DNA of 59,090 nucleotides, taken from assembly GCA_041662965.1 (NCBI GenBank), contig JBAZRI010000006.1, forward strand, positions 1 through 59,090, read 5' to 3'. Of the stretch, positions 1,924-58,849 are shown one piece after another. Made by a program: the position numbers and the translations under genes. Every line of letters starts with the position of its first letter. Position 1 is the stretch's first letter. This DNA is from Patescibacteria group bacterium. GTDB lineage: Bacteria; Patescibacteriota; Patescibacteriia; Patescibacteriales; GWC2-42-12. Under the pieces are notes generated by a model. The model did not search any database. It had not been told where the DNA came from and saw only the letters and a list, made by a program, of their open reading frames with translations.

Positions 1924-2904
1924 TTAAAGGTCTTTTTTGCTTAATAAGCCGTTTTGCGCCCCGGGGATGCTAACTACCGAAGCGGCGTTTCTTGAAGCTA
2001 AATGCAAGGCTTTTTTTATGTCTTGCTTATATAATTCCAGTCCGGCGATAAAAGCCGAACCGAAAGAATCGCCCACTCCAGTGGTATCGGCGCGCTGTTT
2101 TTCTTTTATGATCGGCTGATGATAAATTTTATTTTCGCAAATCGCGTCGGCGCCGTCCCGTCCGCCGGTGATAACAACGATTTTAGGGCCGTAAGAACTT
2201 AGAGCCAAGAGCAAATTTTTTACATTATTTAAAAAGGCGCGGCTCTTAGTTTTATATTTTTTATCTGACATGACTAATTCTATGGCTTCGTCTTTATTAA
2301 CAATCAAGCAGGTTGTATTTTTAAAATATTTCCCGATGCCAGAGAGGCCGGTTAAAATCTGCCTATGTCCCGGGTTCCAGGCAATCTTTTCATTTTTCAC
2401 GGAGAAAATCTTTTCTAAATTTCTTTTCCATTCCCCGGATAAAGAGGTTAAATATATCCACTCGCTTTGATATAGAGTCTCAACTTCAAAATTATTAATG
2501 GTTAATTCGCTGTTGGCCGCGCGATTGGAAAAAACAATATGCTCGTTAGTCGGCCCGACCAATAAAAAAGAAAAGCCGGTCTCAATTTTTTTAACTTTTT
2601 GCACTAAAGTTATGTCAACGCCATGGGCTTGAAAATTATTTAAAATTCTTTGGCCGCGGGCGTCTTCGCCGATGGCCGAGAGGCAAGCCGCCTTAAAGCC
2701 GAAGCCGGACAAACAAACCGCGGCGTTAGCCGCGCCGCCGCCGAAACTGGAAAAAGACTTATCAACCTTAATTTTGGCGCCATATTCAAAAGCCAATAAT
2801 TTCTGCCGGGTCAAATCTTTCTTGTTGTTGATTAAAATACCTTCGCTGGTATAAAAAGTAATGTCCTCGGTCGCCCCGCCTATGGTTATAACATCGTATT
2901 TCAT
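1924..2904 (-). CDS. PfkB-family carbohydrate kinase
   Basis: Ribokinase-like signatures: GGAANAA near the N-terminus and DTTGVGDSFGSAF near the C-terminus. Confidence 0.8.
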   Translation of the reverse strand: MKYDVITIGGATEDITFYTSEGILINNKKDLTRQKLLAFEYGAKIKVDKSFSSFGGGAANAAVCLSGFGFKAACLSAIGEDARGQRILNNFQAHGVDITLVQKVKKIETGFSFLLVGPTNEHIVFSNRAANSELTINNFEVETLYQSEWIYLTSLSGEWKRNLEKIFSVKNEKIAWNPGHRQILTGLSGIGKYFKNTTCLIVNKDEAIELVMSDKKYKTKSRAFLNNVKNLLLALSSYGPKIVVITGGRDGADAICENKIYHQPIIKEKQRADTTGVGDSFGSAFIAGLELYKQDIKKALHLASRNAASVVSIPGAQNGLLSKKDL

Positions 2905-2945
2905 AGAAAAATTGTTAGTATTAATATATTTATATTATAACATAT

Positions 2946-2969
2946 AAAAACCCCCTTTAACAAAGGGGG
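2946..2969 (-). terminator. intrinsic terminator hairpin after galU
   Basis: ccccctttaacaaaggggg stem-loop, followed on the minus strand by a T-run. The same palindrome word recurs in frame at 5421-5439. Confidence 0.55.
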
Positions 2970-2991
2970 TAAATATAATTTAAGGATCGCA

Positions 2992-3858
2992 TTATTTCTT
3001 TAATAACTCTTTAGTAAATTTCTTTATCTCCGGGCCGATATCATCGCGGTCAAAAGCGTATTTCAGCATGGTCTTCATGTAATTAAGCGGGTCGCCGGTG
3101 GTCAGCCATTCGCCGCCCTGCACTTTTTTAGCGTAAAATTTACCGCCTTGCTTAACATACTGCTTAATAGCGTCAACTATCCAAAGTTCGTTGCCCTTAC
3201 CCAAAGGCAAATTTTTTAAAACATCCACGACATCCTGGTTTAAAATCATGCGGCCGAAATCGGCCAGGCGCGACGGCGCTTCTTTAACGCTCGGCTTTTC
3301 AACTATATCCTGAATCTGCATAGTGCCTTTTTTAACTTTAACGATGCCGTAGCGGACAACATCTTCTTTGCTCACTTCCTGCACGCCGATCATCAGATGG
3401 CCGGTTTTATTATAATCATCGGTCATCTGCTTGGCGAAAGGCACTTTTGATTTTACCAAATCATCGCCCCAAACGAACATAAACGGCTCGCCTTTGACAA
3501 GGCTGGCCGCGGATAAAACCGGCGTGCCGTTGCCGTACGGTCCTTTTTGCCTGACATAAATAAAATTGGCGAGGTTAGCTATTTTTTTTACCTCTTCCAT
3601 TAATTTATCTTTGCCGGCTTTTTTTAAATCATCAATCAGCGCCCAATTATAATCAAAATGGTCTTCCAAAGGCTTTTTATCCCATTTAGTGACTAAAATT
3701 ATATCCTCAATCCCGGCCGCCACTAATTCTTCAACCACTAACTGGATAATCGGCTTATCAACGATCGGCAGCATTTCTTTAGGCATGGCTTTAGTCGCCG
3801 GTAAGAGCCTAGTGCCCGAGCCGGCCACGGCCACGATAGCTTTTTTTATTTTTTGCAT
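2992..3858 (-). CDS. galU: UTP--glucose-1-phosphate uridylyltransferase
   Basis: N-terminal AVAGSGTRLLPATKAMPKEMLPIVDKP nucleotidyltransferase motif; length about 288 aa. Confidence 0.9.
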   Translation of the reverse strand: MQKIKKAIVAVAGSGTRLLPATKAMPKEMLPIVDKPIIQLVVEELVAAGIEDIILVTKWDKKPLEDHFDYNWALIDDLKKAGKDKLMEEVKKIANLANFIYVRQKGPYGNGTPVLSAASLVKGEPFMFVWGDDLVKSKVPFAKQMTDDYNKTGHLMIGVQEVSKEDVVRYGIVKVKKGTMQIQDIVEKPSVKEAPSRLADFGRMILNQDVVDVLKNLPLGKGNELWIVDAIKQYVKQGGKFYAKKVQGGEWLTTGDPLNYMKTMLKYAFDRDDIGPEIKKFTKELLKK

Positions 3859-5829: not shown

Positions 5830-6681
5830 TTATTCCAGCGGACTTACTATCTCTCTTAATTTATTATTCGCCACTTTGGTATAGATCTGCGTGGTTTCCA
5901 GCCGCGCGTGGCCCAATAGCTCCTGTATATACCTTATATCAGTTCCGCTTTCAAGTAAATGAGTGGCGAAACTGTGGCGCAGGCTATGCGCGGATATATT
6001 GGGCTTTACTTTAGCCAAGCGCGCCGCCTCGCCCACTATTTTTTGAATTGTGCGCACGGTTAATTTTGTTCCGGCGGGCTGGCTTTCAAATAAAAAAGTC
6101 AGCGGCTGATATTCCAGTAAATATTTTTCAATATTTCTTAAAGTCTGATCGGAAACTATCGTTATCCTGTCTTTGGCGCCTTTGCCATGCCTGACCGTAA
6201 TAATCCTGCGGAAAAAATCAATATCATTGATTTTCAGATCAACCGCTTCGCTGACTCGGAGCCCTGAACCGAATAATATTTGGATCATCAATTTATGCTT
6301 AATATTATCCAAAACGTTTATCATCATTACTACTTCATTTTTACTAAGCACAACCGGAAGCTTTTTTTCGCTTTTTGGCCGCTTAATTCCGATTTTTGAA
6401 ATAAAAAAACTCCTTTGCAATACGCCTTCGTAATAAAATTTGAAAGAATTGATGGCTAAATTAACGGTTGATGATGATTTACCGAGATTAAACAAACAAT
6501 CAATATAATCCCGCAAGTCTTCGGAGTTTATCTCTCTCGGGCTTTTATTTGCAAATCTAAGCAATTCTTTGTTATAATAAAGATAAGCTTGAATAGTTTT
6601 CGGGCTGAAATTGCGTATCCTCATTTCCCGAGCTAAATTAAACATCGGATCCTTGCTTGGATATTGATAATTTCCGTTCAT
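5830..6681 (-). CDS. tyrosine recombinase, IntI-like termini but Xer-sized (candidate cassette-array integrase)
   Basis: R...HxxR...Y catalytic set (GLRVSE, HSLRHSFATHLL, LGHARLETTQIYTKV). SAM-like N-domain (FSPKTIQAYLYYNKELLRF). C-terminal ...REIVSPLE resembles the IntI tail ...VRSPLD. The segment between GKGAKDR and HSLRH is only about 60 aa. Confidence 0.85.
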   Translation of the reverse strand: MNGNYQYPSKDPMFNLAREMRIRNFSPKTIQAYLYYNKELLRFANKSPREINSEDLRDYIDCLFNLGKSSSTVNLAINSFKFYYEGVLQRSFFISKIGIKRPKSEKKLPVVLSKNEVVMMINVLDNIKHKLMIQILFGSGLRVSEAVDLKINDIDFFRRIITVRHGKGAKDRITIVSDQTLRNIEKYLLEYQPLTFLFESQPAGTKLTVRTIQKIVGEAARLAKVKPNISAHSLRHSFATHLLESGTDIRYIQELLGHARLETTQIYTKVANNKLREIVSPLE

Positions 6682-6747: not shown

Positions 6748-6767
6748 GCATATAACTAGTTATACGC
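6748..6767. other. attI-like core: near-perfect 20-bp palindrome ending in the first GTTATAC box
   Basis: gcatataactagttatacgc (18/20 self-complementary), readable as 7-bp inverted arms around ACTAGT. Lies 67 bp from the recombinase start, at the left boundary of cassette 1. Confidence 0.45.
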
Positions 6768-6874
6768 CATTTTGAAAAGCCCCCTTTATTTTTTTAATAA
6801 TTTTGGCAATTCTTTTTGGGGTCGAAGTATAACTGGAATTTATAGATAAGTATTAATAAATTAATATTAAAATT

Positions 6875-7321
6875 ATGAAAGAACCAACAATGCCAGGGAT
6901 GGAAAATAAAGGAGAGAAAAAATCCTGGGAAGATTTATCAAAAGTAGAAAAAACAGCTGAAGGTTATAAAGCTAACAGTAGATTTATTAGATATGAAATC
7001 TTAAAACAGTTAGGAGAGCAAATGGTAAATATGGCTGAAACATTTAAAGATGAAAGAACCTCAATGGACGAGAAGGCTAATGGATTGCATATAACTGACA
7101 GAGTACATGTTCAAATTCCAATGGATGAAAAATATTCTCTTGGAAATAATTTTAGTTTAAAAGAATTTGAATCTTTCGATCTAAATTTACCTGAAAGATT
7201 TATTAAGTTTATTGAAAGCGGACAATTAGACGAAATTGGATTCGAAAACGAGGCTGGTTACAAGGTTAGCGCTACCCTAGAAGGTGATAATTTAATTATA
7301 AAAAATGAAGGAGCTTTCTAA
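6875..7321 (+). CDS. hypothetical protein (cassette 1)
   Basis: 148-aa ORF with no motif I recognise; acidic, no TM segment; flanked by the 54-nt inverted repeat 6759-6812 / 7325-7378. Confidence 0.55.
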   Translation: MKEPTMPGMENKGEKKSWEDLSKVEKTAEGYKANSRFIRYEILKQLGEQMVNMAETFKDERTSMDEKANGLHITDRVHVQIPMDEKYSLGNNFSLKEFESFDLNLPERFIKFIESGQLDEIGFENEAGYKVSATLEGDNLIIKNEGAF

Positions 7322-7371
7322 AATGAATTGCCAAAATTAAATACACTAATGTAGGGGCTTTTCAAAACAGC

Positions 7372-7568
7372 GCATAACAACGCATATCTGGCTACGGGAA
7401 AATCACTCAAATATATTCAAAGGATGTGATTTTCCCTCCGCCCAAATTTTCATCCCTTAGTTTCGATGAAGATTTAGGTGGAGATAATTAAACAAAGCAT
7501 TTTCTGAAATCAAAGGTTCATCCTGTTAAATCGGGATGAAAACTTCAGATGATGCGTGAACGTTAGAC
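7372..7568 (+). other. attC-like site 1 (long, about 197 bp)
   Basis: R'' GCATAAC, 2-nt spacer, cgcatatctg ... cagatgatgcg, 5-nt spacer (tgaac), R' GTTAGAC. The interior holds three local hairpins (gggaaaatcac/gtgattttccc; ttcatc/gatgaa; tctgaa..ttcatcc/ggatgaa..ttcaga). Confidence 0.6.
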
Positions 7569-7604
7569 GAAATTTATTTTTAATTCCCTTTAATACTTAC
7601 GCTT

Positions 7605-8192
7605 ATGAAAATAGCAATCATATCAGACATTCACGACAACTTTCATAATATTATTCTGACCTTGAAAGATATTAAAAAGCGAAAGGTCGATCAAATTATT
7701 TTTCTTGGCGATTTTATCAATAACGGAATAGCCAAGGTTCTTGCGGAATCACCAATTCCAATTTTTGCCATTTGGGGAAATAATGATGGTGATAAAACAA
7801 TGATTACCAAAACATCGCTGAGTGAAAAAAGTAATTTAACCGTAAGTGAAAATATTTACGATTTTTTGGAGTTTGATAACAGAAAAATTTTTATAACCCA
7901 TTATCCAGATTTGGCTAAGCCAATGGCAAAAACTGGAATTTACGACGCAGTATTTTATGGGCATAATCATTTGAAAAACGAAGATAAAATCGGCGACTGT
8001 TTAGTAGTTAACCCTGGTGAGATATCTGCCCACAAAACTGGTGTGGCAACTTTTGTGATTTACGATACCAAGAAAAATAATATTGATTTCATTGAGTTGA
8101 AAAACTCCGTGACTTGGAAAACGAAAGTTGTCGATGAATATATAAAAACTTCCACGTTTAAATTTAGTAAGTCTAAACGCCACCAGTATTAA
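7605..8192 (+). CDS. YfcE/MJ0936-type metallophosphoesterase (cassette 2)
   Basis: MKIAIISDIHDN..., GDFINNG, WGNNDGD, GHNH motifs of calcineurin-like phosphoesterases. Confidence 0.8.
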   Translation: MKIAIISDIHDNFHNIILTLKDIKKRKVDQIIFLGDFINNGIAKVLAESPIPIFAIWGNNDGDKTMITKTSLSEKSNLTVSENIYDFLEFDNRKIFITHYPDLAKPMAKTGIYDAVFYGHNHLKNEDKIGDCLVVNPGEISAHKTGVATFVIYDTKKNNIDFIELKNSVTWKTKVVDEYIKTSTFKFSKSKRHQY

Positions 8193-8334
8193 AGGGAATT
8201 AAAAATAAACTCAAGGGGGGCGCTGCGCTTTTGCCCCGCTCATTATTAATAAATTCACATATAGGAAAGCGGGGCAAACCCTCGCCTAACAACGCGATAA
8301 GCGGAAAAGTCCTCAGCTCGGACTTTTCGCAAAT

Positions 8335-8363
8335 TTGACTTATTTTTTATTTAACAGTAAAAT
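8335..8363 (+). promoter_or_regulatory. sigma70-like promoter for hicBA
   Basis: TTGACT (8335-8340), 17 nt, TAAAAT (8358-8363), 21 nt upstream of the hicB ATG; overlaps the inner inverted repeat. Confidence 0.45.
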
Positions 8364-8384
8364 AACTGCATAAACTATAAAAAT

Positions 8385-8603
8385 ATGCGTAAAATAGACC
8401 TAAAATCAGTAGTTTGGAAAGAGGGCAAACATTATGTTTCTCAATGTTTAGAAGTTGACGTTTCCAGCTTCGGAAAAACCAAAAAAGAAGCCTTAGCTAT
8501 GCTACAAGAAGCATTGCAATTATATTTTGAAGATATTCCTGTTCCAAAAATGGCTGAGGTAAAAAATCCGATTATCGCTTCGGTTAAGCTTCAATATGCC
8601 TAA
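8385..8603 (+). CDS. hicB: HicB-family antitoxin
   Basis: 72 aa. The WKEGKHYVSQCLEVDVSSFGKTKKEALAMLQEALQLYFE pattern is typical of HicB/UPF0150. Overlaps the downstream toxin gene by 8 nt. Confidence 0.75.
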   Translation: MRKIDLKSVVWKEGKHYVSQCLEVDVSSFGKTKKEALAMLQEALQLYFEDIPVPKMAEVKNPIIASVKLQYA

Positions 8604-8817
8604 ACCTTATCCACTTCGACTCATACTGAAAGTCCTTCTTAACAAGGGCTTCTTTTTTGTTTCACAAAATGGCTCGCACGCTAAGTATCGTTGTCATCAC
8701 AACCCAGAATTAACCGTCATTATTCCAATGCACGGCAAAGAAGTGCTTTATGGCACTTTTAGGTCTATTTTACGCCAAGCAAAATTACAGCTTAGCGATT
8801 TTGATAATAAAAAATAA
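8596..8817 (+). CDS. hicA: HicA-family mRNA interferase toxin
   Basis: 73 aa; LLNKGFFFVSQNGSHAKYR...IIPMHGKEVLYGTFRSILRQA matches the HicA/YcfA pattern including the catalytic His region. Confidence 0.75.
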   Translation: MPKPYPLRLILKVLLNKGFFFVSQNGSHAKYRCHHNPELTVIIPMHGKEVLYGTFRSILRQAKLQLSDFDNKK

Positions 8818-8875
8818 GTCAAACTTCGCTTATCGGTATACGTTAGGCGAAATAAAAAAACAAATTATAAAATAT

Positions 8876-9247
8876 ATGGAAAAACCAATTTATGAACATC
8901 CTGAGGATACCGCATCGGATTTGATGAAAAATGATTATCTAAACGAATATCTTACATTTAATAGGCTACTTTACGATGAAGGCAGCAAATATAAAAAACC
9001 GCCTCTTGCTCCGAGAGGTTTTTCTCAAAGATATCCAAATATGACATTCAGCGGCCTGCCTTTTAAGATTTCAGAAATAGATAGACAAAAAATTGAAGAA
9101 CTAGATAAATTGTCTGTCGAGGCTAATCGTTTATTAAATGAAACGCCTTCAGACACAAATGCGCTATTAAAAATAGTTATTCTGGTTGCAGAAATATGCG
9201 GCAGGCCTGACTTTGCAAATAACTTTAGGGGAGGTGCCAAGGAATAA
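8876..9247 (+). CDS. hypothetical protein (cassette 3)
   Basis: The track ORF 8750-9247 runs across hicA and the GTTAGGC core. The internal ATG at 8876 (MEKPIYEHPED...) lies just inside the cassette boundary, so it is taken as the start. Confidence 0.5.
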   Translation: MEKPIYEHPEDTASDLMKNDYLNEYLTFNRLLYDEGSKYKKPPLAPRGFSQRYPNMTFSGLPFKISEIDRQKIEELDKLSVEANRLLNETPSDTNALLKIVILVAEICGRPDFANNFRGGAKE

Positions 9248-9263
9248 TTTGTTTTTTTACATC

Positions 9264-9350
9264 GCCTAACACGCGATATCCGCAAGAGCTAAAGCCACAT
9301 TTCAATTTGCTTCGCTTCATTGAAATGTCGGATATCGCGAAACGTTAAGT
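9264..9350 (+). other. attC-like site 3 (canonical size, 87 bp)
   Basis: R'' GCCTAAC, ac, gcgatatccg, bulge, acatttcaat/attgaaatgt stem, cggatatcgc, gaaac, R' GTTAAGT. Unequal spacers (2 vs 5 nt), as in attC sites. Confidence 0.7.
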
Positions 9351-9382
9351 GAAATTTTAAAGAAATATTTTTGTTATTTTAC

Positions 9383-9530
9383 AAAAAAACGACCTCTTTT
9401 GTGGGTGGGTCGTCATAGCTTCATTGAAGCAACCTCTGTTTTTTTACGAAGCTAGCCCTTCCCCTAGATTTAACCGGTGAATCCAGAGGCAATCCGACCT
9501 CCTCGGACGGCTAACTTTTCCGAGTATTTA
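9383..9530 (-). ncRNA. candidate about 145-nt structured RNA in ORF-less cassette 4
   Basis: Minus strand: TTGACA (9563-9558), 17 nt, TAAATT (9540-9535) upstream. Intrinsic terminator acgacc...ggtcgt plus U-run at 9413-9383. Internal stems uccga/ucgga, ccucug/cagagg, gcuuc/gaagc. No ORF of 40 aa or more. Confidence 0.3.
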
Positions 9531-9595
9531 TAATAATTTATATTATCCATTATAAAATGTCAAGATTTAATATATACAAAAATATTTCTTTAAAA

Positions 9596-9667
9596 CTCAG
9601 AGGGTCGCTGCGCTTTCTTTTGCCCCTATATTTTAGTATAATTACATTAAGAAATTACAAGCCTAAA
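9596..9667 (+). other. degenerate terminal attC remnant / shared pre-R'' module
   Basis: ctcagagggtcgctgcgctttcttttgcccc... ends in GCCTAAA. The first about 30 nt match 8210-8238 (ctcaaggggggcgctgcgcttttgcccc), which precedes GCCTAAC at 8284. No downstream GTTRRRY partner was found. Confidence 0.4.
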
Positions 9668-9704
9668 TAACCGGTAATTTTTATAAACTAGAAAAAAATA
9701 TCTG

Positions 9705-22688: not shown

Positions 22689-23492
22689 TTACTCTTTAAT
22701 TTTCGCTAAAGTATTCGCGTATTTAGCTTTAAAATCATTTTTTATGGTATTATAAGGTTTTTTAAAAAATATGGTGGAGAAATAATTTATGGCATAGAGC
22801 CAGCCGGTTTTGGCGATGCCGTCTTTCTCTAGTCTCCTGCCGGAAGCGTAAATCGGCAAATCAAAAGTGAATTTAACGCCGCCGGCTTTTATCAAGCGCC
22901 TAGCCAAATCAGCGTCTTCTCCCCAAAAATCAAAATTAGAATTAAAACCGCCGATGGCTTCTAAGGCCGCGCGCTTAACCACGAAATTTCCGCCCTGGAG
23001 CATTGAGCCGACCCCGAGGATATAGCGATTAATAAGATAAATAAAAAAACCGGCGTAATAAAAAGTTTTAACGGCCGCGCGCGCGTTTTTTGATAAATCA
23101 TAATAAATAAACGGGCCGCTTAAAGCCACGAGCTTATCATTTTTGGAAAATTCCTCAAATACTTTATCAAGCCAGCCCGGAGTCATTCTGGTATCGGCGT
23201 CAATATTAGCGACCAGTTCGCCGGTTGACGCTAAATAACCGGCGCGGCGCGCTTTCACCAAGCCTTTATCAGGCTCGTCAACCAGTTTAACCTGGGGAAA
23301 TGAAGCGATAATTTCCCTGGTTTTATCGGTTGAAGCGTTATTAACCACCACGACTTCCATATCATAATTTCTGCCGTTCATTTCCGCTAAAATTGAATTC
23401 AAACAGCCGCCGATGCGGGCCTCTTCGTTATAAGCCGGAATAACTACGCTTAATTTCACCCCGTTAGAAATTATGTTATTTTCTTTAGGCAT
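22689..23492 (-). CDS. glycosyltransferase family 2
   Basis: LSVVIPAYNEE, IDADT, GEDADLARR motifs. Confidence 0.8.
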   Translation of the reverse strand: MPKENNIISNGVKLSVVIPAYNEEARIGGCLNSILAEMNGRNYDMEVVVVNNASTDKTREIIASFPQVKLVDEPDKGLVKARRAGYLASTGELVANIDADTRMTPGWLDKVFEEFSKNDKLVALSGPFIYYDLSKNARAAVKTFYYAGFFIYLINRYILGVGSMLQGGNFVVKRAALEAIGGFNSNFDFWGEDADLARRLIKAGGVKFTFDLPIYASGRRLEKDGIAKTGWLYAINYFSTIFFKKPYNTIKNDFKAKYANTLAKIKE

Positions 23493-23538
23493 ACCTTTTT
23501 ATAAATTACCCTCGTTATCTTAATTATTTCTAACGGGG
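23459..23538 (-). promoter_or_regulatory. start-codon-enclosing hairpin (ccccgttagaa / ttctaacgggg family)
   Basis: 13-nt arms 23459-23471 and 23526-23538 with a 54-nt loop that contains the ATG of the GT2 gene. Same arms and a 53-nt loop occur at 57956-58034. Confidence 0.45.
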
Positions 23539-23560
23539 TGAATAAATTTTTAATAATAAA

Positions 23561-50727: not shown

Positions 50728-50745
50728 AAAATATTAATTTCGCTT

Positions 50746-50778
50746 AGACGTCCGACGTCCCGGGGACGTCGGACGTCT
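50746..50778. promoter_or_regulatory. 33-bp perfect palindrome between divergent promoters (operator candidate)
   Basis: agacgtccgacgtccc-g-gggacgtcggacgtct; the half-site agacgtccgacgtcc recurs at 52179-52193. Confidence 0.5.
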
Positions 50779-50786
50779 TTTCTTGG

Positions 50787-50822: not shown

Positions 50823-52172
50823 ATGAATAATAAACTTAAAAAACTAGTTTTGCTCGGCGGGGACATAGCCGTCCTCTATTTTTCCTTGTATTTGACTTTA
50901 GTAATCAGATATTTAAGCGACTACCAAGCTAAAACCTGGGCGGCGCATTTCTGGCCGTTCACGGCTATTTTTATTTTATGGCTGATCATTTTTTATATCT
51001 CTAATCTATATAACCTGAATTTAGCCGTAAACAATATAAAATTTTACCAATCAAGCGGACGCGCCCTGATTATCGCCGGCCTGGCCTCGCTTACTTTCTT
51101 TTATTTAATGCCGCGAATCGGCATCGCGCCGAAAACCAATTTATTCATATATATCATAGTTTTCGCGGTTATTTTTTATCTTTGGCGCCAATTCTATAAT
51201 TATTCGCTAAAATCATACCTGCCTAAAAGAAATATCGGCATCGTCGGCTATAATAATTTAGTGGCGGAAATTATCAACGAGTTCAGGCAAAAGCCCCATC
51301 TAGGCTATAATCTAAGCTTTATAGTTGACGACAGCGGCGAAAAGCAGGCGGCCGGCATCAGACCGATTACCGACTTGGAAGTATTGCTGGCTGAAAATAA
51401 ATTGGATACGGTTATTTTATCTTCCGACCCGCACCGGTCGGAAAATCTGCGCGCTGTTTTATTCAATTCGCTTTACCGCCGGATAAATTATGTCAGCCTG
51501 CCTAATTTCTACGAAGCCATAACCGGCAAGGTCCCGCTGGATTCGGTTAACCAAATGTGGTTTTTAGAAAACTTAAGCGAAAGCAATAAAATCTGGTTTA
51601 ACCGCCTAAAAATAATTTATGATTTCATTATCGCTCTGGCGATTTTTATTATTACTCTGCCCTTCTGGATTATTATCGCCGTAATAATTAAACTAGAGAG
51701 TCCCGGACCGATATTTTTTATTATGAACCGGGCCGGACAAAATAATAAAGTATTCAAGTTGATAAAATTCAGAACCATGAGAGAAAAAAATAATGATTAC
51801 GCGCCGACCCGAGCGAACGATCCCCGCATAACTAAGTTCGGCGGATTTCTAAGAAAAACCAGGCTTGATGAATTGCCCCAAGTTATTAATATACTGAAAG
51901 GCGAAATGAGCTTCGTCGGGCCCCGCCCGGAGCGGCCGGAGCTGATCCTTGAGCTTGAAAAGCAAATCCCCTTCTATGGCCAAAGAACTTTAGTCAAGCC
52001 CGGCCTGACCGGCTCGGACCAGATTTCCGGCGAATATCATTCGCCGTCGCGCGAAGACAGCTTAAAAAAATTGCAATACGATCTCTTCTATATAAAAAAC
52101 CGATCTTTATTTTTAGACCTGTCCATTATTTTAAAAACCGTCGCCACGGTAATTTCCAGAGGCGGCATGTAA
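50823..52172 (+). CDS. polyprenyl-phosphate hexose-1-phosphate transferase (WbaP/PglC-type sugar transferase)
   Basis: N-terminal TM bundle, C-terminal Bac_transf motifs PGPIFF...KFRTM...DELPQ...GEMSFVGPRP. Confidence 0.85.
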   Translation: MNNKLKKLVLLGGDIAVLYFSLYLTLVIRYLSDYQAKTWAAHFWPFTAIFILWLIIFYISNLYNLNLAVNNIKFYQSSGRALIIAGLASLTFFYLMPRIGIAPKTNLFIYIIVFAVIFYLWRQFYNYSLKSYLPKRNIGIVGYNNLVAEIINEFRQKPHLGYNLSFIVDDSGEKQAAGIRPITDLEVLLAENKLDTVILSSDPHRSENLRAVLFNSLYRRINYVSLPNFYEAITGKVPLDSVNQMWFLENLSESNKIWFNRLKIIYDFIIALAIFIITLPFWIIIAVIIKLESPGPIFFIMNRAGQNNKVFKLIKFRTMREKNNDYAPTRANDPRITKFGGFLRKTRLDELPQVINILKGEMSFVGPRPERPELILELEKQIPFYGQRTLVKPGLTGSDQISGEYHSPSREDSLKKLQYDLFYIKNRSLFLDLSIILKTVATVISRGGM

Positions 52173-52178
52173 ACCACA

Positions 52179-52248
52179 AGACGTCCGACGTCCTATAAAT
52201 ACTTTGACCCGTTTTGACACCTTTTGACCTCTTTGCTATACTAATCCC
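52179..52248 (+). promoter_or_regulatory. operator half-site, phased TTTGAC repeats and promoter of the leaderless HTH gene
   Basis: agacgtccgacgtcc (52179-52193); three tttgac(c/a)c words about 10 nt apart. TTGACA (52214-52219), 17 nt, TATACT (52237-52242), aatccc, ATG at 52249. Confidence 0.55.
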
Positions 52249-57948: not shown

Positions 57949-57955
57949 ATATTTA

Positions 57956-58034
57956 CCCCGTTAGAAGTACCAATTTTAGCGGGCAAAAACAAATTGTCTT
58001 TAATCATTAATTAATATGAAAACTTCTAACGGGG
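57956..58034 (+). promoter_or_regulatory. start-codon-enclosing hairpin (ccccgttagaa / ttctaacgggg family)
   Basis: Arms ccccgttagaagt (57956-57968) and acttctaacgggg (58022-58034); the 53-nt loop holds the wzm ATG (58016). The 3' arm encodes TSNGV. Confidence 0.45.
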
Positions 58035-58849
58035 TGGAAACAATAATCAGGCCGAAAAAAACTTTTTCTTTAAATGACATAAAAGAAATCTGGCAATACC
58101 GCGAGTTGCTCTATTTTTTTACTTGGCGCGATTTAAAAGTCAGATATAAGCAAACCGCCATCGGCGTGGCTTGGGCTATTTTCCAGCCGTTTACCACCAT
58201 GATTGTTTTTAGCATCTTTTTCGGCGGCTTGGCCAAAATGCCTTCCGACGGCATCCCTTATCCGATCTTCGTTTATGTCGGCCTGTTACTCTGGCAATTT
58301 TTTTCTTCGGCTTTAAGCGAAACGTCAAGCTGTTTGATTTCCAACCAATCAATCATTACTAAAGTTTATTTTCCGCGCCTGATCCTGCCGCTAGCCTCTA
58401 CTCTAACTAAATTAGTTGACTTCGCGGTCGCTTCAATTATTTTAGTCGGTCTGATGGCCTATTACCATTACACACCGAATTTAGCCGGCCTATTAATTCT
58501 GCCTCTGCTTTTACTTATAAGTTTCATGGCCGCGGTAAGCATCGGCTTATTTTTAGCTTCAATCAACGTTAAGTACCGCGACGTGCGCTATGCTCTGCCG
58601 TTTTTTATCCAGATTATGTTATTTTTAACGCCGGTAATTTACCCGCCTTCAATTGCAGGAAAATATTCCTGGATTTTAGCCATTAACCCCATGACCGGAG
58701 TAATTAAAGCCGCGCGTTCGGCGCTACTCGGCGGCGCGCCGATTAACTGGGAACTCTTAGGCATCTCCGGTATTACCTGCTTTATTTTACTGATTTTCGG
58801 CGTAATTTACTTTAAAAAAACCGAAAGATATTTCGCGGACATCATTTAA
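58016..58849 (+). CDS. wzm: ABC-2 type polysaccharide export permease
   Basis: 6-TM ABC2_membrane pattern, RDLKVRYKQTAIGVAWAI signature. Confidence 0.85.
   Translation: MKTSNGVETIIRPKKTFSLNDIKEIWQYRELLYFFTWRDLKVRYKQTAIGVAWAIFQPFTTMIVFSIFFGGLAKMPSDGIPYPIFVYVGLLLWQFFSSALSETSSCLISNQSIITKVYFPRLILPLASTLTKLVDFAVASIILVGLMAYYHYTPNLAGLLILPLLLLISFMAAVSIGLFLASINVKYRDVRYALPFFIQIMLFLTPVIYPPSIAGKYSWILAINPMTGVIKAARSALLGGAPINWELLGISGITCFILLIFGVIYFKKTERYFADII

Follow-up and report, generated by a model that had tools for sequence, protein, structure and literature searches.

Inverted repeats framing the cassettes of an integron-like array in Patescibacteria, read as outer helices of an extended attC chassis

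We analyzed a stretch of 59,090 nucleotides (nt) from a Patescibacteria group bacterium (GenBank assembly GCA_041662965.1, contig JBAZRI010000006.1), hereafter the window, in which a tyrosine recombinase gene adjoins an array of four small cassettes. Each cassette is framed by inverted repeats, or arms, set in a fixed register to the recombination cores. On the sequences compared here, the best reading of these repeats is that the attC is here an extended, modular 'chassis' offering two slots for cargo, and that they are its outer helices. Features lie on the plus strand unless the minus strand is indicated.

The recombinase (5830..6681, minus strand) comprises 283 residues with a Pfam Phage_integrase domain and a SAM-like N-terminal domain. 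It combines a XerA-like architecture with an IntI-like sequence, and its gene is divergent from the array. The best curated model for it is NCBIfam NF040815 'XerA / integron integrase', which it matches at 242 bits (cut-off 220). The IntI model TIGR02249 gives 215.8 bits, under its cut-off of 265, with a match split into two stretches. The alignment with Pyrococcus XerA (4a8e) covers the recombinase end to end, whereas with VchIntIA (2a3v) 29 query residues stand opposite 71 residues of the chain (174-244), a segment that we take to hold the I2 helix and the residues gripping the extrahelical bases. As judged from these alignments, the recombinase is related to IntI but is without the IntI-specific I2 region that marks the integrases of integrons. 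Its relatives come from metagenome-assembled genomes of Patescibacteria (Falkowbacteria, Parcubacteria, Moranbacteria). More than 6,800 database proteins match it at E ≤ 1e-40, the family being annotated as XerD or integrase, and among the 120 matches listed nearly all are 270-295 residues long, a few truncated entries excepted.

The array opens with a palindromic, attI-like simple site, GCATATAAC-TA-GTTATAC (6748..6765), upstream of the recombinase gene, in which we infer the crossover to lie at G|TT (6759|6760). Comparison loci are designated by L-numbers; the recombinases of L001, L060, L005 and L008 are 83%, 78%, 73% and 53% identical to that of the window, respectively. The attI-like sequence ...ATATAAC-T(A/T)-G|TT sits about 70 nt upstream of the recombinase gene in the window, L001, L005, L008, L053 and L060. 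In these five loci the sequence next to the recombinase gene is kept through ...ATATAACT(A/T)G, and the sequence 3' of GTT varies with the first cassette. As in integrons, the recombinase gene is thus divergent from an adjoining attI-like site that opens the cassette array. Glycosyltransferase genes lie beside the array in conserved synteny, on a 487-kb contig among others, and the GC skew (window 1-52000, plus strand) is negative to either side of the array, with no switch. Together, the conserved synteny and the lack of a skew switch point to a sedentary, integron-like platform. If the skew reflects replication, the attC bottom strands would fall on the lagging-strand template, opposite to the reported bias of large sedentary integrons.

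The cassettes are bounded by GTTRRRY cores (R', at 6759, 7562, 8842 and 9344) and RYYYAAC-like boxes (R'', at 7372, 8284 and 9264). The left frame of cassette 1 (6759..6812) comprises R' GTTATAC, helix 1 (6770-6783), a 14-nt bubble and helix 2 (6798-6812); its right frame (7325..7378) comprises helix 2 (7325-7339), the bubble, helix 1 (7354-7367) and R'' GCATAAC (7372-7378). The frames enclose an open reading frame (ORF) of 148 codons (6875..7321) with no family match. The site attC1 (7372..7568) runs from this R'' to R' GTTAGAC (7562-7568) and contains internal hairpins. In cassette 2 the 25-nt left arm (7573..7597) begins 4 nt past R', after a GAAA linker, and is followed by a gene for a YfcE-type metallophosphoesterase of 195 residues (7605..8192) and by the right arm (8185..8209), which pairs at 25/25 positions and contains the stop codon (8190-8192). 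A conserved hairpin module, CTCAAGGGG...GCGGGGCAAACCCTC (8210..8283), separates this arm from attC2 (8284..8848; R'' 8284-8290, L'' 8295-8303, L' 8827-8835, R' 8842-8848), whose variable tip holds a further cargo. The left arm of cassette 3 (8853..8868) follows R' 8842-8848 and a GAAA linker, and its cargo is an ORF of 123 codons without a family match (8876..9247). The right end of this cassette (9244..9270) consists of the right arm (9244-9259), which overlaps the stop codon (9245-9247), a CATC linker and R'' GCCTAAC (9264-9270). The following attC3 (9264..9350) is 87 nt long, with an 11-bp L box, a tip hairpin and R' GTTAAGT (9344-9350).

Cassette 4 lies between a 20-nt left arm (9355..9374) and a right arm (9576..9595) complementary at 20/20 positions. 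Its cargo (9376..9563, minus strand) contains no ORF and is a candidate small RNA unit, with a promoter-like TTGACA-17-TAAATT (9563-9535) and a terminator-like hairpin near 9414-9380, both on the minus strand. The candidate RNA is a structured stretch of about 150 nt (predicted RNA fold -44.6 kcal/mol, z = -2.1). Rfam searches, at gathering thresholds over the window and seven loci and at E ≤ 1 over the array, gave no relevant match, cassette 4 included; a transfer RNA search found none; and the overall count of sigma-70-like promoter sites, 12, is no higher than the 12.6 of shuffled sequence. The array ends in decay (9596..9671), with a truncated copy of the pre-R'' module (9596-9626) and a degenerate R''-like GCCTAAATAAC (9661-9671). 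Cassette 4 has no intact attC, unlike the constant geometry given in a preliminary description of this DNA. The same description had the right arm overlapping or abutting the stop codon, which it does by overlap in cassettes 2 and 3, cassette 4 having no ORF.

As in integrons, the sites between the cassettes are imperfect palindromes of the form R''(RYYYAAC)-L''...L'-R'(GTTRRRY). Their commonest length is 100 nt, and those without tip cargo span 72-203 nt. Their L stems are 9-11 bp long and perfect in the examples read, with asymmetry confined to the unpaired spacer (4 vs 6 nt). The sites do not share the single constant geometry at first proposed, in which the right arm leads straight into RYYYAAC. 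That order is found in cassettes 1 and 3; in cassettes 2 and 4 a module of about 75 nt, truncated in the latter, comes next to the arm. We distinguished at least three types of right-hand junction, besides a second cargo slot within attC. In the first type, CATC directly precedes R''; a G-C and an A-T pair thereby lengthen the R helix, and a 2x2 internal loop comes next. The second has CTCA and then the conserved hairpin module of about 75 nt before R'', and the third has a module of the CTTCTCCGC type. A near-identical pre-R'' module is present twice in L001 and in many of L019-L058; a scan of viral contigs gave no match to it.

The second slot of attC2 holds a fifth cargo that had been overlooked, a HicB/HicA pair (8385-8817) lying between R'' (8284) and R' (8842), inside the attC. 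The unit (8331..8826; hicB-like 8385-8603, hicA 8596-8817) fills the variable tip, between a conserved CAAATTT and AAACTTCG. It is bracketed by an outer repeat (8334-8351/8806-8823, 18/18) and an inner one (8387-8405/8757-8775, 19/19), and a promoter-like TTGACT-17-TAAAAT (8335-8363) lies inside its left arm. HicBA homologues of 85-90% identity occupy the same tip slot in two other attC types (L063, L064/L065), and homologues of 81% identity (L066-L069) lie in an apparently orphan, decayed attC amid housekeeping genes. The perfect 19-nt inner repeat is coding DNA, made of the first hicB codons and of a C-terminal motif conserved in hicA. Array-borne homologues that differ by 8-11% elsewhere have 0-1 changes in its 38 nt, whereas three changes at synonymous codon positions break it in the orphan copies. 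About one in ten attCs of the collected loci is long owing to cargo in the variable tip. A conserved ORF of 138 codons without a Pfam match fills the slot in L034 (960-1390) and L025 (minus strand, 2745-3165), and a non-coding, structured-looking insert of about 300 nt fills it in L042 and L047; the inserts of both pairs of loci are framed by a related arm pair. Cassettes and site types thus recur in different arrays, as is expected of mobile units: a homologue of cassette 3 in L017, HicBA in three attC contexts, and chassis families across many contigs.

We examined the arms by direct reading and by a scan of the whole window for exact inverted repeats with arms 20-2500 nt apart. The four pairs of terminal repeats previously aligned by hand are all present, at or within 2 nt of where they had been placed. 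The pair of cassette 1 (6759-6812 vs 7325-7378) was confirmed with its exact blocks of 14 nt (6770-6783/7354-7367) and 15 nt (6798-6812/7325-7339) in register, separated by the 14-nt bubble; its R boxes (6759-6765/7372-7378) match at 6/7 positions. The other three repeats are genuine, with their limits adjusted and those of cassettes 2 and 4 slightly longer than first aligned: 7573-7597 vs 8185-8209 in cassette 2 (25/25), 8842-8868 vs 9244-9270 in cassette 3 (25/27, with an exact core at 8853-8868/9244-9259) and 9355-9374 vs 9576-9595 in cassette 4 (20/20). In the scan, the four longest repeats of the window (25, 20, 19 and 18 nt) all fall within 7573-9595. Six of the 15 longest exact repeats, including the top two, belong to the four cassette pairs, and nine of the 55 that reach at least 12 nt have both arms within a single cassette unit, in 4.8% of the sequence. 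Around 52 crude gene calls, the longest exact repeat between 5' and 3' flanks is 6-11 nt, save for 25 and 15 nt at two cassette genes and for one unrelated outlier. Every arm is found solely at its own two positions in the window. A chance origin of the arms is excluded.

The outlier (gene 50823-52172) carries palindromic AGACGTCCGACGTC repeats at its flanks (50740-50779, 52178-52193), with a flank-to-flank repeat of 16 nt, and is the sole non-cassette case in the window. A further hairpin element, TTCACCCCGTTAGAA...(about 55 nt)...TTCTAACGGGGTGAA, has two copies in the window (23455-23542 and 57955-58035). The cargos as a whole are not degenerate palindromes, the z scores of their interiors being just -0.5 to 2.2 against a background standard deviation of 1.35; this weak interior palindromy indicates that discrete helices alone are involved. 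Within the phosphoesterase ORF of cassette 2, nested repeats at 7695-7708/8068-8081 (14/14) and 7754-7772/7922-7940 (18/19) are roughly concentric with the arms, in an interior of weak palindromy (z ~2).

The same design was found well beyond the window, in at least 30 distinct cassettes from more than 40 Patescibacteria loci, with recombinase identities down to 52-53%. The arrays beside the recombinases of L001, L005, L060 and L008 have it with other sequences, as in GTTAGGC-GAAA-TAAAATTTAAATCACTTTTTTG ... CAAAAAAGTGATTTAAATTTTA-CATC-TCCTAAC of L008. We scanned metagenomes with an attC-core pattern, CCTAACAACGCGATAWRCGG, that is free of arm sequence. Of the 40 loci returned, nearly all with sufficient upstream DNA have sequence before the attC that pairs with sequence just 3' of the preceding GTTAGGCGAAA. 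When the left arm was forced to start at R'+11 (4 nt past GTTRRRY) and the right arm to end at the conserved junction, 30 distinct stems of 9-27 bp were obtained, of which 19 are perfect. The right arm terminates exactly at CATC-R'' or at the module of about 75 nt that precedes R''. Complementarity fell to background when partners were permuted (0.35) or slid by 1-3 nt (0.33-0.42). When 31 stems were aligned without gaps, the share of paired cells was 95.4%; shuffled alignments gave 48% (none of 500 as high) and slid ones 36-54%. Covariation scored 1.09, compared with 0.21, and both sides vary in 13 of 14 pairs. The rows of this alignment were pre-selected for pairing; they speak to the diversity of the sequences and to the register but not to how often stems occur. 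For a less biased estimate we took 13 units lying between two validated attCs, with the offset free between 0 and 7 nt: stems are present in eight, all at offset 4. The other five are multi-cassette spans, ORF-less GC-rich units of 90-132 nt or a false attC call. Strictly bounded units numbered just 13 because the attC validator is conservative.

Stems are also carried by ORF-less and 'empty' all-hairpin cassettes (cassette 4 of the window, cassette 1 of L001). In L060 (7780-8200, minus strand), a complete three-cassette array on the 487-kb contig, the two cassettes with intact attCs have good stems; in the last one, whose attC is truncated much like the end of the window array, both arm helices have indels and mismatches. 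Direct homologues of cassette 3 were uninformative on covariation, the single cassette-borne one (L017) having a nearly identical left arm with a 4-nt deletion and a different downstream site, with its gene following another attC. The ORF-less GC-rich cassettes of 90-132 nt (GTTATGCCGAAATCGCTCGC...GCGACATCGCATAAC) stand between ordinary cassettes in L046 (93-225), L048 (282-372), L055 (174-264), L026 (888-1014) and L007, and look like cargo-free hairpin units of another chassis type. For comparison, a class 1 array (estX-psp-aadA2-cmlA1-aadA1) shows complementarity of just 0-6 bp past its 7-bp cores, against 9-27 bp beyond the R boxes here, in agreement with the early proposal of a stem longer than in classical integrons. 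Whereas pairing in a classical attC ends at the R''/R' cores, the stems described here start 4 nt beyond R'.

The preliminary description took the arms to be private to each cassette. This does not hold across genomes, where the same sets of arms are found around unrelated genes. L019 and L033 have the arms of cassette 4 with cargo that does not align, and L060, L034 and L037 have the two-helix frame of cassette 1 with genes for unrelated proteins (E = 0.9 for the L060 cargo protein against that of the window). A recurrent frame family, whose outer helix TTTTAAAAAACAAACTT and inner helix GAGCCCTTTTGAAATTTTTTT are separated by a variable bubble, encloses at least 10 cargos without similarity detectable by blastn, blastp or tblastx, and on both sides homology ends at the inner edge of the inner helix. 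The outer 15-nt arm of this family is invariant in about 14 cassettes beside a freely variable spacer. Invariance among family members picked by motif is partly by construction, and we relied instead on this list, which was gathered without the arm motif. Conversely, the cassette 3 gene has in L016 a homologue of 72% identity that lies among ordinary genes, with neither arms nor attC. Since the same frames surround unrelated cargo, the arms are a layer of the recombination-site chassis and not a property of the gene. The cargos of the recurrent family (L021, L024, L027, L041, L045, L051, L060) are mostly antisense to the array, with a TTGAC-like motif just inside the right frame; among them are small membrane proteins, a Cys-rich peptide of 56 residues and, judging by a sequence motif, a histidine-phosphatase-like protein.

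Predicted folds agree with the earlier suggestion that the arms stack on R''/R' in a circular or single-stranded cassette. The junction of a virtual circular cassette 3 folds as a single rod, in which the 16-bp stem of the arms leads through a 2x2 loop to the R box with 2 extra bp, then to the L box and the tip, at -38.8 kcal/mol (z = -9.9) against -26.7 in the array context. For cassette 2, a three-way junction of the arm stem, the module hairpin and the R/L stem is predicted. Folding complete circular cassettes and the entire 3-kb array to minimum energy, on either strand, leaves every arm stem in place. Within the array, R' 8842 is predicted to pair with the R'' of its own cassette (9264) and not with the upstream attC.

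We propose that the arms act as a clamp on single-stranded DNA that is free in sequence, loops out the cargo and pre-forms the recombination core, a reading to which we give a probability of roughly one half. In the anatomy observed, a conserved 11-nt arm, GTTRRRY+GAAA, pairs with R'' plus 2 nt. The length of this arm (7-nt core and GAAA) is that of a Xer binding arm. Beyond it, any sequence is allowed provided that the far end of the cargo is complementary, so that a stem of 9-27 bp always has the cargo in its loop. The opposite pole, in the variable attC tip, has a second slot built in the same way. In a single-stranded cassette the arms would zip together and loop out the cargo regardless of its length. 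In an excised circle the rod or three-way junction would clamp R' onto its own R'', so that the core bound by the recombinase would be ready-made when the circle inserts at attI. Within the array, where several hundred nt of flexible DNA otherwise separate neighbouring attC hairpins, stem formation would leave a few nt between them. It would also favour pairing of R' with the R'' of its own cassette and should thereby set the ease of cassette excision. An enzyme without I2 may depend on more pre-formed duplex than IntI does.

The proposal builds on an anatomy, a register, a recurrence with many sequences and an absence from the class 1 array that were each observed directly; folding of the single strand in vivo, its effect on recombination and the link to the missing I2 helix are what it would add. 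A role at the level of DNA is favoured because the register to the 11-nt arm is fixed, because ORF-less cassettes also have arms, and because simultaneous folding of both flanking attCs has been argued to favour excision (PMC5371416). The I2 helix has been tied to single-strand attC recombination, and its gain is seen as the change by which a Xer-like enzyme became a recombinase of single strands (PMC7790495). Several points weigh against the clamp. The array fold draws R' off the upstream attC, so the effect of the stems could be inhibitory rather than helpful, and an I2-less recombinase might act on double-stranded sites, which would make hairpins irrelevant to the chemistry. Perfect stems are in the majority, which a process of copying or homogenisation would explain no less well than would selection on folding. 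The inner helix of the recurrent family has uncompensated single changes and one apparent compensated change. Finally, the mismatches in the stems (three G-T on the top strand, six, as A-C, on the bottom strand and four others) carry no strand signal.

The arms might instead be a footprint of cassette birth with little present function, a view that we regard as a possible but clearly less probable account and that is compatible with the clamp. Genes would have been captured at the hairpin tip of an 'empty' chassis, for example after breakage of the tip or by template switching, so that cargo was born between two stem halves. Identical frames around unrelated cargos with homology ending at the inner helix edge, 'empty' all-hairpin cassettes such as cassette 1 of L001, cargo at either pole of the rod, and the perfection of 19/30 stems all fit such an origin, as do the arm-free, non-cassette homologue of the cassette 3 gene (L016) and the decayed arms of the terminal cassette with a dead attC (L060). 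A neutral footprint accords poorly with the outer arm kept invariant next to a free spacer in about 14 cassettes, which resembles purifying selection, and with a register held across recombinases 52-53% identical; moreover, no capture mechanism is known. It had also been suggested that the arms join the 5' end of each cassette messenger RNA to its 3' end. In a polycistronic array transcript, such pairing could create RNase III sites or protect the RNA ends. The promoterless sense cassettes 2 and 3 of the window would transcribe both arms, the left arm spanning the 5' leader and the right arm overlapping the stop codon. As a general role this is doubtful: arms are placed by R'/R'' and not by ORFs, with 0-29 nt between arm and start codon, and they occur on ORF-less cassettes. 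Promoter-like motifs inside the arms of cassette 4, HicBA and the recurrent family (TTGAC motifs), often on the opposite strand, mean that the cargo's own transcript would miss at least one arm, and the G-T (three) and A-C (six) counts give no sense-strand excess of G-U-type mismatches. Such pairing may apply to the inner HicBA repeat, which lies in a likely hicBA transcript and is more conserved than the rest of the operon.

Two further accounts were considered. Recombination between arms would flip the cargo relative to an array promoter, and L035 (1060-1320) does have an L008-type arm and a 5' gene part reversed relative to attC, while cargos of the recurrent family are mostly antisense. 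We consider such a switch highly improbable, as L035 is the sole example and an IS30-like transposase gene also interrupts that cassette, no cargo was found in both orientations within the same frames, and arms of 9-27 bp are short for homologous recombination. Equally remote is the idea that the units are miniature inverted-repeat transposable elements (MITEs), or elements piled up at the chromosomal dif site by a housekeeping Xer recombinase. This idea would suit the XerA architecture of the enzyme, its very large Patescibacteria family annotated XerD or integrase, and the conserved synteny of its gene, but is at odds with units bounded by GTTRRRY/RYYYAAC with R/L-box palindromes. We rejected MITEs and other transposons with terminal inverted repeats, as each arm occurs only twice in 59 kb, target-site duplications are absent, and the flanks (GAAA vs CATC/CTCA) are not direct repeats. 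A location at dif or the terminus is not supported by the GC skew, negative on both sides of the array, which is weak evidence from a single 59-kb window.

More tentatively, and with a good deal less confidence than in the clamp, we suggest that Patescibacteria may harbour a widespread integron-like system in which an I2-less, Xer-like recombinase moves rod-shaped, single-stranded cassettes with two hairpin-tip slots, new cassettes arising by gene capture there. Such a system would stand between Xer/dif and integrons, either as an intermediate still alive today or as a solution reached in parallel, and would provide the first concrete structural model for cassette genesis. A full-text literature search, with most subscription journals outside its scope, found no prior description of Patescibacteria integron-like arrays, of complementarity beyond the R boxes or of attC-tip cargo. 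A design in which cargo sits at the tip of a long DNA hairpin, starting right at the end of the recombinase-binding core and recurring in dozens of related arrays, bears on cassette folding, movement and birth. Here an IntI-related enzyme without I2 stands beside bona fide attC-like arrays, and conserved chassis hold unrelated genes precisely at hairpin tips. The register-locked stem makes a clear prediction for excision and integration that can be addressed by mutation. For annotation, tools that require an IntI-specific domain and classical attC limits would miss or mis-delimit such arrays.

As read from its genes and sites, the system has the sites and the array of an integron but not the I2 region: the site logic is that of an integron, with a different site architecture and an I2-less recombinase. 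It resembles classical integrons with their IntI and attCs (class 1 59-base elements, Vibrio VCRs) in the divergent tyrosine recombinase beside an attI-like site, the GTTRRRY/RYYYAAC limits, the imperfect R/L-box palindromes with an asymmetric unpaired spacer and variable tip, the mostly small sense ORFs, the toxin-antitoxin cargo and the decayed last site. It differs from them in the 9-27-bp extension, the module of about 75 nt at many sites, the tip cargo in about one-tenth of attCs, the L boxes without obvious extrahelical bases, and the recombinase. Val and colleagues reportedly described in 2005 that the attP(+) site of CTX phage is recombined, as a folded single strand, by XerCD, a Xer-like enzyme without I2. 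The likeness lies in an I2-less Xer-like enzyme and a folded single strand whose stem supplies duplex binding arms, which for the cassettes is predicted; CTX, however, is a phage genome integrating at dif, whereas here small cassettes form an array beside the recombinase gene, away from any GC-skew switch. Like the stems that bracket ribosomal RNAs and are cut by RNase III, the arms are long-range complementary segments around each unit of a multi-unit transcript, but they are in register with DNA recombination cores, and some flank units whose likely promoters fall within the arms. With MITEs and foldback elements they share terminal inverted repeats around a short, often non-coding segment; unlike these, they have no target-site duplications and no dispersed copies, vary in sequence from unit to unit and are fixed in position to the attC cores. 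Finally, the HicBA unit inside attC2 recalls IS1111-attC elements and group IIC-attC introns, which are likewise foreign DNA within an attC. It has neither transposase nor intron, however, and is a hairpin-tip insert with inverted arms of its own, in a slot that holds other cargos elsewhere.

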